A stretch of DNA of 64,000 nt from Escherichia phage EcF-vB (PV683228.1), one strand, 5' to 3'. Positions 241 through 5,292 are shown, numbered from the stretch's first letter. A program made the numbers and translations. Notes: generated by a model from the sequence alone, not told the origin.

Positions 241-333
241 TTTAGAATCTCCTAGTTTAAGGATTTTGTTGAGTGGGGAAGGTCATTCCCTCCCGTTGAT
301 TGACAATTTACAGATTTTTGATTGTCTCGTCAA
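241..333 (-). promoter_or_regulatory. early promoter cassette A1: -35 TTGACG / 17 bp / -10 TAAATT, then stem-loop GGGAGGGAATGACCTTCCCC at the predicted transcript 5' end, then SD AGGAGA-N7-ATG
   Basis: Read on minus strand; same architecture repeated six times with exact 17 bp spacers. Confidence 0.5.
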
Positions 334-838
334 TGTCTTTTTCAATATCTTTTAAAGTTTTTTCTAAGTTCTTGATATTGAAAGATAAGCCCTCTCCCAA
401 TGTTTTGCTGTAACCACTAGGGCGCAAGTCATGCAGTTCGATTTCTTCCACTTCGAAGAGACTGACCAACTCACCGCTTACAGTGTAAGCCATTGAAACA
501 GTGTTTACAGGGGCTTTATAGAACTTGTTTAAGGACTTGATAGAACGCTCATAAGCCATTTTATAACCGTTTAAAAGGTTTTTAACGTGGTTACGAACGT
601 TTTTACACTCATCTAAGTAAATCCCTAAGAATAACGGCAATAACTCCGCTACAGCTTGCATAAAGTGAGAGACTACAACGGTTGCAACATTACGACGATG
701 TACATAATAAGCCCCGTTTTCTGATTTAGTGATGGTTGCAAAATGCACACCATTACAACGAAATTCGTAAGTATCTTTAACAGGTTTTGACATTACAGCA
801 CTTGAACGAATGTAATTGATAGCTTTGAACTTGTTCAT
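308..838 (-). CDS. hypothetical early protein (176 aa)
   Basis: ORF 308..883 trimmed to ATG at 838, which follows the SD; the upstream 15 codons (MTSPLNKILKLGDSK) are the translated leader repeat. Confidence 0.55.
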   Translation of the reverse strand: MNKFKAINYIRSSAVMSKPVKDTYEFRCNGVHFATITKSENGAYYVHRRNVATVVVSHFMQAVAELLPLFLGIYLDECKNVRNHVKNLLNGYKMAYERSIKSLNKFYKAPVNTVSMAYTVSGELVSLFEVEEIELHDLRPSGYSKTLGEGLSFNIKNLEKTLKDIEKDIDETIKNL

Positions 839-929
839 TTTTGAATCTCCTAGTTTAAGGATTTTATTTAGTGGGGAGGTCATCCCTCCCGTTGATTAGT
901 AATTTACTTGTTTTGATAGCTGATTGCAA
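839..929 (-). promoter_or_regulatory. early promoter cassette A2: -35 TTGCAA / 17 bp / -10 TAAATT, 5' stem-loop, SD
   Basis: Same conserved cassette as A1. Confidence 0.5.
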
Positions 930-1059
930 GCAATTTTTTCAGTTTATCTTTAAAGAAATCTTTTAAGTGAATCCCTTTAAGATAAACCCCCTCGAACAAA
1001 GTTACCAATGTCAAGAGGGATTGTCAACACTTTTTTAGAAGTTTTTTGTAAGTTATTGA

Positions 1060-1401
1060 TTAACTGATAAATATTTTTTCAGGTTTTACGTAGCTGATAC
1101 GTTGGTTTTTTAGCAGGTCATCCCAGATTAGTGCGGCAATATGAGAATAGCCGGATTCACGTAGAAGTTTCATTGTTTTACATCTCGTTTCAAAGCGGTT
1201 TACATAGTATTCACTATTTAAAACCGTTTTATTCCTTTCGTTGTCTGTATGGATAATCTGCATTACTTGAAAGGGGCTGATATCCTCGCCCTTGTTCCAT
1301 TGCTCAAAGTATTTTAGGCACTGCATAGGTGTCATCTTATCGCTTACTTGAGTTGACCAAGATGAATCAGCTTTATCGGTAATTACGGTTACGTGAGCCA
1401 T
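1060..1401 (-). CDS. hypothetical early protein (113 aa)
   Basis: ORF; ATG preceded by conserved AGGAGATTCAAAA leader. Confidence 0.55.
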   Translation of the reverse strand: MAHVTVITDKADSSWSTQVSDKMTPMQCLKYFEQWNKGEDISPFQVMQIIHTDNERNKTVLNSEYYVNRFETRCKTMKLLRESGYSHIAALIWDDLLKNQRISYVKPEKIFIS

Positions 1402-1494
1402 TTTTGAATCTCCTAGTTTAAGGGTTTTACTTAGTGGGGAAGGTCATTCCCTCCCGTTGATTAGTAATTTACAGGCTTTTAGCAGGCTTGTCTA
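1402..1494 (-). promoter_or_regulatory. early promoter cassette A3: -35 TAGACA / 17 bp / -10 TAAATT, 5' stem-loop, SD
   Basis: Same conserved cassette. Confidence 0.5.
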
Positions 1495-1725
1495 GTCTTT
1501 TTCAATGATAATTTCATATTGACCATCAACGCTGTCAAAATAAACGCCGTCGCTGTCTTCTGTCTTAAAATAACACTGGATGTCATCACTGGCGGGGTAG
1601 TCTTGTCTTGCTATCTGACAAACTTGAATAGCATTTTCTTTACTCCCTGTAAACTCCTCAAGCCCTTTAAAATCACATGAATGCCCATTACAAATAGAAA
1701 GGATAAGATAAACGGTTGTAAGCAT
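1492..1725 (-). CDS. hypothetical small protein with N-terminal hydrophobic segment (77 aa)
   Basis: ORF; SD AAGAGG upstream of ATG at 1725. Confidence 0.5.
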   Translation of the reverse strand: MLTTVYLILSICNGHSCDFKGLEEFTGSKENAIQVCQIARQDYPASDDIQCYFKTEDSDGVYFDSVDGQYEIIIEKD

Positions 1726-1740
1726 GATTTAAGCCTCTTA

Positions 1741-1766
1741 AAAGCCCCTACAAGGGGCTAATCAGT
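1741..1766 (-). terminator. putative intrinsic terminator (weak)
   Basis: Hairpin AGCCCCT-acaa-AGGGGCT 3' of the 1792..2334 gene, followed by a short U run on the minus transcript. Confidence 0.35.
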
Positions 1767-1791
1767 GTTTATAAGGTGATTGTATAGGTTA

Positions 1792-3672: not shown

Positions 3673-3764
3673 TTTTTGAATCTCCAGTTTAGGACTTTAT
3701 TTAGTGGGGAAGGTCATTCCCTCCCGTTGATGTGTAATTTAATCTATATAAAAACCAGTGTCAA
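3673..3764 (-). promoter_or_regulatory. early promoter cassette A5: -35 TTGACA / 17 bp / -10 TAAATT, 5' stem-loop, SD
   Basis: Consensus -35, exact 17 bp spacer. Confidence 0.55.
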
Positions 3765-4093
3765 CAGTTTTGTTTTCGTTTGCTCAATTCTTGAACAATT
3801 ACAGCGTAGTAGTCTTTTAAGTCACTGATATTTAAAGCATTTATTAGTGCATTATAATCATCGATTAACTGAAAATCATCTTTGAAAATGTCGCTAATCT
3901 GGTACGTTCTTGCTTTGAATCTGAAGCTCATTTCTAACTGCTTTATTTGCTCATCGCTTAAACGCTCCAGAAAGCTCCCTACAAGGTTATTGCTAACCTG
4001 TTGTGTGATTGCCTTATTTGCTAGATTATAGGCTTTATATGCCTTATATAGCGCGAAAATGGCAATGGTTGCAGTGATGCCAGTCATTAACAT
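3761..4093 (-). CDS. hypothetical protein with N-terminal transmembrane helix (110 aa)
   Basis: ORF; start overlaps the stop of the upstream gene. Confidence 0.5.
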   Translation of the reverse strand: MLMTGITATIAIFALYKAYKAYNLANKAITQQVSNNLVGSFLERLSDEQIKQLEMSFRFKARTYQISDIFKDDFQLIDDYNALINALNISDLKDYYAVIVQELSKRKQNC

Positions 4094-4383
4094 GGTGTTT
4101 CCTCTTTACGTGATACTTTGCCATTTACAGTTATCTCATAGGATTCTAATAAGTCACTTTTAGACTTTACTGGACTTTTAAAAGTATCATCATAAATATT
4201 TACTTGCAATACAGGTTTTTTATACTCCCTGCAACTATTCCATAAGCAAATTACTACGCGACGGCCTTTTATTTTGCCGTGCAACCATTCCATAACATCA
4301 TGATTATTTCTTGATGTCTCGATAAAATCAATTTTGTTAAGTAACTTGCTTAGATTTTCACGGACTTTATTTGATAGTTTCAT
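4087..4383 (-). CDS. hypothetical protein (98 aa)
   Basis: ORF; conserved leader/SD. Confidence 0.5.
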   Translation of the reverse strand: MKLSNKVRENLSKLLNKIDFIETSRNNHDVMEWLHGKIKGRRVVICLWNSCREYKKPVLQVNIYDDTFKSPVKSKSDLLESYEITVNGKVSRKEETPC

Positions 4384-4412
4384 TTTTGAATCTCCAGTTT
4401 AGGATTTAGTGG

Positions 4413-4471
4413 TAAAGCTCTTTATCTGGGGCTTAAGATATCAACTTTTAAGCCCCTTGTAAAGTACTTTA
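4413..4471. repeat. intergenic element B3 (palindrome - GC hairpin - palindrome)
   Basis: Same structure as B1; right palindrome abuts the stop of the 4472..4729 gene. Confidence 0.6.
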
Positions 4472-4729
4472 TCAGATTAAATTGCTAGTTAATGATAAGT
4501 GCATTTTGTAACCTTTTTTAGTGAACACGTTCACTTTACCGAGTGTTTTTACACCTTTAAAAAGGTTATTTGAACTGCGTTTTAAAGTTAACTGTTTATC
4601 AACCTTCACACCCCACCTTACAGCAGTTTGTTTTCCGTTGTCAACCACTTTTCCGCATAACTTTTTAGCCATAACGCGAGCGTCATCACGAGTTTTTGCA
4701 GCAATTACAACGTTTTTGATAATAGCCAT
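4472..4729 (-). CDS. hypothetical small basic protein (85 aa)
   Basis: ORF 4472..4744 trimmed to ATG at 4729. Confidence 0.5.
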   Translation of the reverse strand: MAIIKNVVIAAKTRDDARVMAKKLCGKVVDNGKQTAVRWGVKVDKQLTLKRSSNNLFKGVKTLGKVNVFTKKGYKMHLSLTSNLI

Positions 4730-4759
4730 TTTTAAGTTCTCCAATTTAGGATTTAGTAG

Positions 4760-4818
4760 TAAAGCTCTTTATCTGGGGCTTACTTTATCGAACTATAAGC
4801 CCCCTGTAAAGTACTTTA
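4760..4818. repeat. intergenic element B4 (palindrome - GC hairpin - palindrome)
   Basis: Same structure as B1; abuts the stop of the 4819..5199 gene. Confidence 0.6.
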
Positions 4819-5199
4819 TTAGCTGATTTTGAATATTGTCACATAGCCATCACTGCCGATTATTTGAGACACTCCAGCTTTTTCCACTGAATAGCCCATA
4901 TTTTCAAGATGATAAACAGCATCATCGTAACCATATGCGCCGCCCTGATAACGTCTCTTATTGCATTTTATCAGGTTTTTACCACGTCCAGCAAGTGCAT
5001 TCAATACGGCTTTTTCACTTGACAGAGTACCGTCTAACATGGTTGCCGTGTAATGGTTGATTTTATTCCCGTTAATATCATACTTAAAATTGAATGCGTG
5101 TACAACAATAACCTGACCTGTAAAATTCTCATCAAGTGATTTTTCCAGTGCATTGCGGAAATTGTCTTTATTGATGAATTTAGGTGCACGATATGCCAT
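4819..5199 (-). CDS. hypothetical protein (126 aa)
   Basis: ORF 4819..5352 trimmed to ATG at 5199 after the SD; the upstream part is cassette A6 read in frame. Confidence 0.5.
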   Translation of the reverse strand: MAYRAPKFINKDNFRNALEKSLDENFTGQVIVVHAFNFKYDINGNKINHYTATMLDGTLSSEKAVLNALAGRGKNLIKCNKRRYQGGAYGYDDAVYHLENMGYSVEKAGVSQIIGSDGYVTIFKIS

Positions 5200-5292
5200 T
5201 TTAGAATCTCCTAGTTTAAGGGTTTTATTTAGTGGGGAAGTCATTTCCTCCCCGTTGATGCAAATACTAGATAACCCCGTTCGAATAGTCAA
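5200..5292 (-). promoter_or_regulatory. early promoter cassette A6: -35 TTGACT / 17 bp / -10 TAGTAT, 5' stem-loop, SD
   Basis: Same cassette; -10 variant. Confidence 0.45.

Follow-up and report, generated by a model that had tools for sequence, protein, structure and literature searches.

Promoter-early stem-loops (PeSLs) have been described as mobile regulatory cassettes of the T4-like phages RB49/phi1, T4/PST and KVP40/nt-1 (Arbiol et al. 2010, PMC2839356; Comeau et al. 2014, PMC4122927). A PeSL comprises a sigma70 early promoter preceded by AT-rich sequence, a polyG/polyC stem-loop for which five positions are described, one of them downstream of the −10 element, and a Shine-Dalgarno (SD) sequence with an ATG at its 3' end, and one such stem-loop cut lacZ expression about as much as rrnB T1 did (PMC2839356). 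PeSLs cluster in variable regions beside genes of unknown function, with indels between close relatives falling at the motifs (PMC2839356; PMC4122927). Here we analyze a stretch of 64,000 nucleotides from Escherichia phage EcF-vB (PV683228.1), called the window below and numbered from its first letter, in which ten promoter modules of two families, type A and type B, precede small genes on the minus strand. They present a promoter with an AT-rich tract, a stable stem-loop, an SD and start codon at the 3' end, copies gathered in a variable region, and junctions between relatives that end in the motifs. We therefore read them, with a probability of about 70%, as PeSL-type cassettes of a Felix O1-like phage, composite elements for the regulation of early genes that unite sigma70 promoter, 5' hairpin, SD and gene-exchange joints.

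By its matches the window belongs to Felixounavirus (Ounavirinae), positions 1–6000 aligning with Felixounavirus genomes at ~90% identity in several pieces (252 matching records, with LNA1, Alf5, GEP101 and NJ12 as best matches). In the genome paper of Felix O1, a 57-bp repeat, CTTTACATGGGGCTTAAAAGTCTGTAAAGTAAGCCCCAGATAAAGAGCTTTACCACT, and a 39-bp repeat, TTGACACTGGTTTTTAGATAGATTAAATTACACATCAAC, were reported only as direct repeats, outside its promoter list (Whichard et al. 2010, PMC3185647); the former corresponds to type B and the latter to the type A promoter. That paper stated temporal regulation and secondary promoters to be unknown, and left open the sites of early promoters and the passage of transcription through many terminators (PMC3185647). 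Our literature search found no paper linking PeSLs to Felix O1-like phages and none containing the motif strings.

Results

A module of promoter, hairpin and leader precedes six minus-strand genes

A first-pass annotation of the window had placed one recurring module upstream of six minus-strand genes with starts at 240, 838, 1401, 2623, 3672 and 5199, and all six copies were located as claimed. In these type A modules an A-tract is followed by the −35 element, an unconserved spacer of 17 nucleotides (nt), the −10 element, the hexamer ATCAAC, a hairpin made of a G-run and a C-run, an A-rich leader, GGAG and ATG. The first promoter of the cluster (5197–5304) has TTGACT at 5287–5292, TAGTAT at 5264–5269, ATCAAC at 5254–5259, the hairpin GGGGAGGAAATGACTTCCCC at 5234–5253, GGAG at 5208–5211 and ATG at 5197–5199. 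The copy at 3670–3776 (TTGACA 3759–3764; TAAATT 3736–3741; ATCAAC 3726–3731; hairpin 3706–3725; GGAG 3682–3685; ATG 3670–3672) precedes a gene of 52 amino acids (aa) that is present in only some relatives. Proteins of unknown function, of 67, 113 and 176 aa, follow the copies at 2621–2728 (TTGATT 2711–2716; TAAATT 2688–2693; ATCAAC 2678–2683; hairpin 2658–2677; GGAG 2632–2635; ATG 2621–2623), 1399–1506 (TAGACA 1489–1494; TAAATT 1466–1471; ATCAAC 1456–1461; hairpin 1436–1455; GGAG 1410–1413; ATG 1399–1401) and 836–941 (TTGCAA 924–929; TAAATT 901–906; ATCAAC 891–896; hairpin GGGAGGGATGACCTCCCC 873–890; GGAG 847–850; ATG 836–838), respectively. The copy at 238–345 (TTGACG 328–333; TAAATT 305–310; ATCAAC 295–300, with its CAAC at 295–298; hairpin 275–294; GGAG 249–252; ATG 238–240) lies ahead of the final gene of the cluster, which continues beyond position 1 of the window, and is placed to drive it.

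Much of the earlier description was borne out, including the exact 17-nt spacer, found in 6/6 copies, and the −10 sequence, TAAATT in five copies and TAGTAT in one. The −35 elements are indeed variants of TTGACA; their quality is unequal, and two of the promoters score only 8/12 and went unlisted by a consensus scan. The recurring stem-loop was recovered as an exact 20-mer, GGGAGGGAATGACCTTCCCC, in four copies against none expected in shuffled sequence, GGGAGGGATGACCTCCCC and GGGGAGGAAATGACTTCCCC being indel variants that keep the stem. The leader, described as near-invariant, gave six matches at three or fewer mismatches where none were expected, namely five type A copies and the type B copy at 3127–3149, with the leader of the copy starting at 3672 being an indel variant outside the reach of that search. 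It is open in frame and extends two open reading frames (ORFs), 308..883 and 4819..5352, by MTSPLNK(I/T)LKLGDSK, the ATG of this extension lying within the hairpin loop. The strong SD stands as well, at a spacing of 8–9 nt between GGAG and ATG in all 10 promoter modules of both types. We also observed that the SD of type A leaders (253–262 and equivalents) can pair with the CCU ahead of it in a weak mini-stem of 3–4 bp, UCCU/AGGA, which may explain conservation of CCTTAAACTAGGAG beyond the SD itself.

A second family shares the leader and the SD

Six copies turned out not to be the full list, as four type B promoter modules and one leader-only copy share the leader and SD within the same 5.3 kb. 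Type B begins with the box ATAAAGTACTTTAC and continues with TTTACA, 17 nt, TAAAGT or TATCTT, and AGATAAAGAGCTTTAC, before the leader, SD and ATG that it has in common with type A. Its hairpin, nine pairs formed by GGGGCTTA..TAAGCCCC, lies inside the promoter, between the −35 element and the predicted start. The copy at 2332–2423 carries the ATAAAGTACTTTAC box, TTTACA at 2409–2414, the 17-nt spacer, TAAAGT at 2386–2391, the hairpin at 2379–2407, AGATAAAGAGCTTTAC, GGAG at 2343–2346 and ATG at 2332–2334, and TAAAGT is also the −10 element of the copy at 4727–4819 (TTTACA 4805–4810; TAAAGT 4782–4787; hairpin 4775–4803; GGAG 4739–4742; ATG 4727–4729). TATCTT takes that position in the copies at 3127–3220 (TTTACA 3206–3211; TATCTT 3183–3188; hairpin 3176–3204; GGAG 3138–3141; ATG 3127–3129) and 4381–4472 (TTTACA 4458–4463; TATCTT 4435–4440; hairpin 4428–4456; GGAG 4392–4395; ATG 4381–4383). 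The leader-only remnant AAATAAAATCCTTAAACTAGGAGCTTTTAAAATG (3486–3533, minus strand) has neither promoter nor hairpin and forms one joint of the insertion or deletion of the 52-aa gene.

The modules are confined to window positions 1–5300; no type A copy was found in the other 58 kb of the window. Likewise, the complete genome of LNA1 carries full copies only in one 6-kb cluster. Relatives were searched in the GenBank phage collection by blastn, with nhmmer used for the module scan. Type A modules occur in 239 Ounavirinae phage records at 1293 places, with 3–8 places in most of the records listed, and the blastn matches are essentially all Felixounavirus or Mooglevirus. The same kind of cluster occupies the same place in Suspvirus SUSP1 and in Erwinia phage Pistou (Kolesnikvirus), while an exact scan of IMG/VR for the hairpin gave no match.

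Conservation across relatives follows the sigma70 promoter pattern

For an information profile, full type A copies, 78 in number, were collected from 15 sources (the window and 14 loci), reduced to 68 distinct upstream sequences and right-aligned on CAAC. The T, A and final T of the −10 element are invariant (2.0 bits), ATCAAC reaches 1.7–2.0 bits, the TTG of the −35 element 1.4–1.9 bits, and an UP-like A-tract at the position of the proximal UP subsite 1.1–1.8 bits, with the 17-nt spacer nearly free (0.1–0.9 bits). In type B, TTTACA, 17 nt and TAnnnT are kept in 68 copies, and the inner letters of the −10 element vary (TATCTT, TAAAGT, TATGAT, TAGGAT, TAAGAT, TAGTAT). On this comparative evidence both families are predicted to be sigma70-type promoters, and the information profile and the fixed position of the hairpin lend good support to the earlier proposal of a reusable expression cassette of sigma70 promoter, hairpin and SD. 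Given that the −10 element ends 10 nt before the stem, canonical spacing predicts +1 on the C or either A of the CAA in ATCAAC, which would leave 2–4 unpaired nt ahead of the hairpin. We infer a start site within ATCAAC and early timing; in Felix O1, reverse-transcription PCR (RT-PCR) showed ORFs 13, 16, 20, 21 and 22 to be maximal at 5 min (PMC3185647).

Hairpin pairing is kept, with a bias toward the sense strand

Type A pairing was assessed by folding each copy, since its variation consists mostly of indels in the G and C runs. All 78 copies fold, forming 37 distinct hairpins with free energies of −7.2 to −18.6 kcal/mol, where random 34-mers of the window average −3.1. In all 78 copies the stem opens with the first G past AAC, 10 nt downstream of the −10 element, and this start base is unchanged in 84 type A copies from three genera, though the stem and loop sequences differ. 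Mooglevirus and Suspvirus have stems and loops of their own (GGGAAACATCCC, GGGCAAGCAAGCCC, GGGGCAAGATAAAGCCCC, GGGGAGGGAGACTTCCCC) with the start position and the preceding ATCAAC unchanged. In type B, 98.8% of cells are paired, and the stem shows two compensatory pairs (G-C to U-A in Pistou; an inner A-U to U-A, U-G or G-C) and nine changes of C-G to U-G. The sense strand was more stable than the antisense strand in 41/51 type A variants (P = 9e-7) and in 18/27 type B variants (P = 0.01), and this bias, which arises from G-U wobbles, indicates that the hairpin is selected in the sense RNA.

Two candidate roles for the hairpins were rejected. For an intrinsic terminator the U-tract is missing, the stems being followed by the tails ACTAAATAAAA in type A and AGATAAAGAGC in type B, and the terminator scan did not list them. 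For an RNase III site the stems are too short, with 5–9 pairs vs about 20 bp or more of double-stranded RNA. The covariance models of Rfam 15 gave no match at E ≤ 1 in window 1–8000.

Single genes are gained and lost between modules

Gene-family maps of 14 genomes revealed a colinear backbone in which single genes are present or absent, each bracketed by modules (families f2, f7, f13, f14, f17, f18, f22 and f26–f28), and a three-gene block is missing from Felix O1. Comparison with 11 relatives yielded 30 structural junctions, of which 24 have both ends in modules, five have one end there and one has none. Counted by ends, 53/60 fall in modules against 24% expected, and 29/36 do so when only distinct junction classes are considered. 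Many junctions show overlapping alignments of 26–89 nt, which means that the joint lies inside the shared repeat; the 52-aa gene at 3514–3672, sitting between two leader copies, is an example. On this comparative ground the modules are the joints at which single genes have been gained, lost or replaced between relatives, and we infer recombination as the cause of the junction pattern.

Exchange among the modules themselves was seen in individual cases. The promoter alleles TTGACA-ctggttttt.. and TTGATT-ttggtttt.. have swapped positions among genomes, ZX4221 carries a chimera of both, and GGGGCGGG stands at two positions in each of finno and Bas63. Global concerted evolution was rejected by a negative test that is reported with the Discussion, leaving these cases as anecdotal ones. 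The window's GGG variant (instead of GGGG) at four positions was left uncounted, as it could reflect homopolymer miscalling. As a side observation, the first type A promoter of GEP101, LNA1 and NJ12 precedes a 62–78-aa ORF that clusters with the 126-aa family f2, a full copy of which lies two genes downstream; the short ORF looks like a partial duplication or a chimera made at a module joint.

Genomic setting of the cluster and other repeats in the window

The variable early cluster as a whole (1–5700, minus strand) holds 14 small genes and 11 modules, that is, 10 promoter modules and one remnant. Read from 5700 down to 1, it is the counterpart of the Felix O1 ORF14–23 region, where small genes follow in a block after the macro-domain gene (window 5721–6506) and terminator t13. 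None of the ten downstream cluster proteins tested has a known function (0/10). A canonical intrinsic terminator at 5650–5691 (minus strand; 19-pair stem and T-run), the homologue of Felix O1 t13 (PMC3185647 Table 2), closes the upstream operon just before the cluster. A second canonical one lies within the cluster at 1740–1759 (minus strand; AGCCCC-TTGTA-GGGGCT, then TTTT). Felix O1 t23, likewise a short GC hairpin followed by a T-run, stands at the end of the Felix O1 cluster (PMC3185647 Table 2), and its position gives no ground for orthology with the terminator at 1740–1759.

Inside the cluster, the minus-strand gene running from 3488 down to 3217 has a 1-nt deletion at about 3345 relative to phage skuden; its product is 81 aa long with an altered C-terminus, vs a 90-aa protein in relatives, whose PHROG match covers only residues 1–52 of 90. 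The deletion points either to a real frameshift or pseudogene or to an assembly error. On the minus strand at 5440–5665, between the terminator at 5650–5691 and the promoter that opens the cluster, there are four direct repeats of ~25 nt that resemble iterons (TCATTTT-NNAA-N-TGTGCAGGTA); GTGCAGGT occurs five times in this region, which yielded no convincing gene and no Rfam match. The repeats could form an array of binding sites for a regulator, or a signal for replication or packaging. Just past the equivalent of the window start, the relatives Andreotti (locus 146–2482), skuden (860–918) and finno (839–1796) have ~1.6 kb without an annotated gene between the cluster and a convergent gene block. 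Repeat regions are annotated in this stretch, and several GenBank records have their first or last base close by; the genome termini may be located there.

Upstream of the cluster, another repeated signal was noted in four copies (8034–8067, 9826–9859, 11909–11942 and 16384–16417). On the minus strand it reads as a terminator, GGCTCC-TTCG-GGAGCC with a T-run, followed directly by the SD CAGGAGA in the two closest copies, and it resembles Felix O1 terminators t2 and t5. Farther away, within coding sequence at 47263–49799, there are 27-nt periodic repeats (49697–49799) and direct repeats of 55–92 nt (48124–48887), which match the repeats of the Felix O1 paper in genes 76 and 77 and give both proteins regions of shared sequence.

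Discussion

We propose that each type A copy would be complete in itself as an expression unit, its UP-like A-tract, −35 element, 17-bp spacer and −10 element being recognized by the sigma70 RNA polymerase of the host. Transcription would start inside the invariant ATCAAC, so that the mRNA would begin 2–4 nt before the GC-clamped hairpin and continue into an A-rich unstructured leader with GGAG 8–9 nt ahead of the ATG. A hairpin near the 5' end, as in the ompA and T7 gene 10 leaders, protects E. coli mRNAs from 5'-end-dependent decay. In its own transcript the type A hairpin would be such a 5'-terminal stem-loop, shielding the mRNA from decay that depends on the 5' end (RppH, RNase E), and in RNA read through from an upstream cassette the same hairpin would stand between cistrons as a barrier, the role that necessarily falls to the type B hairpin. 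That the type A stem has a strictly fixed start in three genera finds its best explanation in a link to the 5' end. The 5' stabilizer proposed in the first-pass annotation is accordingly plausible for type A, and 5'-end protection is most likely the role of this hairpin in its own transcript. In addition, the head-to-tail arrangement of about ten 100-bp modules that have their leader in common would make them portable homology, allowing insertion, deletion or replacement of individual genes of unknown function.

Several observations weigh against this reading. The −10 sequence TAAATT matches the consensus at only 4/6 positions, and two of the window's six type A promoters reach only 8/12. RT-PCR placed the peak of Felix O1 ORFs 14, 17, 19 and 23 at 25 min (PMC3185647), and our literature search retrieved no transcriptome, start-site, half-life, promoter-activity or terminator-activity study for Felix O1-like phages. 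Since the modules occupy nearly all of the intergenic space, the junction test places the breaks between genes and within repeats but does not make the repeats their cause. Gene order is colinear in 14/14 genomes, with insertions, deletions and replacements and no long-range shuffling, and a global test for homogenization within genomes was negative, with an identity of 0.878 between different positions of the same genome vs 0.877 between different genomes (P = 0.35). By blastn of the module there is no sequence similarity to T4-like PeSLs; as it is architecture that defines a PeSL, the result speaks to shared descent and not to kind. Finally, the type B hairpins and the A-like hairpins of Pistou, whose modules have ATCAAC or ATCGAAAC at the predicted start and a stem overlapping the −10 element, lie upstream of their own predicted start sites. 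Such hairpins would be absent from their own transcript and present only in read-through RNA, and their sense-strand conservation there indicates a function that is at least partly intercistronic, as barrier, attenuator or 3'-end protector. Thus, 5'-end protection cannot be the shared or sole function of these hairpins.

This last point opens the possibility, which we hold to be a serious one short of even odds, that the type A hairpin too acts mainly on read-through RNA, as an attenuator, insulator or 3'-end barrier, and that its 5' placement is incidental. An attenuator or barrier between cassettes is the role first proposed for PeSL stem-loops, for which the effect on lacZ, comparable to that of rrnB T1, speaks (PMC2839356). 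One shared function would be more economical than two, and compensatory and wobble changes have preserved the type B and Pistou hairpins in the sense strand although these lie upstream of their predicted starts. However, neither type A nor type B hairpins are followed by a U-tract, and the canonical terminators at 5650–5691 and 1740–1759 indicate that the phage uses U-tract terminators where termination is needed; moreover, a barrier in read-through RNA would not need a start base fixed in 84 copies from three genera. An altogether different use of the same sequences seems unlikely, namely that a phage or host factor binds or cuts there and thereby shuts all early cassettes off together, be it a translational repressor or endoribonuclease resembling T4 RegA/RegB or a repressor that acts on an operator. 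It would account for the 1.7–2.0 bits of ATCAAC, for a leader conserved beyond what promoter or SD need, and for the GGAG in every leader, GGAG being the target motif of RegB in T4. Yet the loop and inner stem vary freely between copies and genera, pointing to selection on structure and not on sequence, and no candidate regulator came to light: the Pistou protein annotated as RegB, a secreted protein resembling an SLT by eye, has its homologue at window 9227–9775, with no other match in the window or LNA1. RegB-type cleavage of the GGAG leaders was dropped as unsupported on that account. The homologue itself (minus strand) is a 182-aa protein with a signal peptide, 44% identical to the 'putative T4 endoribonuclease RegB' of Pistou, which looks lytic transglycosylase (SLT)-like by eye, and the RegB annotation of the Pistou protein is doubtful.

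Two further explanations can be given very little weight. The GenBank record of KhF3 annotates hairpins in this region as Rho-independent terminators on the strand opposite the genes (35–55, 2685–2705, 3550–3570 and 5109–5129; the one checked, 3550–3570, lies under a type A match), and on the antisense strand a U-rich run, GUUGAUUAGUAAUUUAC, does follow the stem. A function in terminating antisense transcription is nevertheless hardly credible, as there are no antisense genes or promoters to terminate and G-U wobbles favor the sense-strand stem in 41/51 type A variants; the KhF3 annotation is probably an artefact of automatic prediction. It is just as improbable that the repeats are functionless, neutral leftovers of tandem duplication of genes with their upstream regions. 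Their head-to-tail arrangement in one cluster is what such duplications would leave, but the downstream genes are mutually unrelated while the modules are alike, conservation follows the sigma70 pattern position by position around a free spacer, pairing is kept through indels and compensatory changes, and the layout persists across four genera. We therefore retain the reading of the modules as PeSL-like cassettes, with the type A hairpin most likely serving a 5'-terminal role in its own transcript and a barrier role in read-through RNA.

If this reading is correct, about ten host-type promoters are predicted at repeats formerly recorded only as direct repeats, in a group used in Salmonella typing and in phage therapy collections. 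The idea behind PeSLs, of cassettes of promoter, stem-loop and ribosome-binding site in which regulatory repeats act as joints of gene gain and loss, would extend to a second, unrelated group of lytic myoviruses. The modules would mark safe insertion points for engineering Felix O1-like phages, and type A would offer a compact candidate expression part with UP element, promoter, 5' hairpin and SD. Between them, the fixed 5' hairpin of type A and the promoter-embedded hairpin of type B offer a natural comparison by which 5'-end protection could be told apart from the effects of an intercistronic barrier. More speculatively, and in our estimate improbably, the cassettes could be actively mobile. 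A recombination or nicking activity of phage or host would then recognize ATCAAC and the hairpin in type A, and in type B the ATAAAG-N2-CTTTAC boxes on either side of the hairpin, and would excise and insert single-gene circles. Active mobility would amount to an integron-like gene-cassette system in a strictly lytic phage subfamily.

Comparison with known systems

Single aspects of the cassettes have counterparts elsewhere in E. coli and its phages. Both the 5' end and the influence on half-life have reportedly been measured for hairpin 1 of the ompA 5' untranslated region and for the T7 gene 10 leader, GGGAGACCACAACGGUUUCCC, which pET vectors employ. Type A resembles both in having a GC-clamped hairpin a few nucleotides from the 5' end (predicted, in type A), an unstructured leader and a strong SD, and the T7 gene 10 stem also begins with GGGAG. 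Unlike in those two cases, the 5' end and the stabilization by type A are predictions, and the same phage keeps similar hairpins away from any predicted 5' end. The morons of lambdoid phages are extra genes with their own promoter and terminator inserted between core genes. Like the cassettes here, they are accessory genes equipped with signals for their own transcription, which some relatives have and others lack. Morons, however, have unrelated flanking signals, whereas each cassette here carries one of two conserved modules with a common leader and lacks a U-tract terminator of its own.

The closest match remains the PeSL. Both PeSLs and the Felix O1-type modules are composites of roughly 100 bp with an AT-rich tract, sigma70-like −35 and −10 elements, a stem-loop of a G-run and then a C-run, and a terminal SD and ATG. 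In both, the stem-loop may be placed between the −35 and −10 elements, over the −10 element or downstream of it, and in both, many copies lie in a variable region beside genes of unknown function, with insertions, deletions or replacements ending in the motifs. They differ in their hosts, PeSL phages being T4-like and the modules here belonging to Ounavirinae with genomes of 84–91 kb, and in number, with about 50 copies over several regions in the former and about 10 in one cluster in the latter. Promoter activity, terminator or attenuator activity and excised mini-circles with one chimeric motif belong to the description of PeSLs, the Felix O1-type modules being described here from their sequence. 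The latter also form only two families with a strictly shared leader, and the type A stem-loop would be transcribed at the predicted 5' end, starting from a fixed base.

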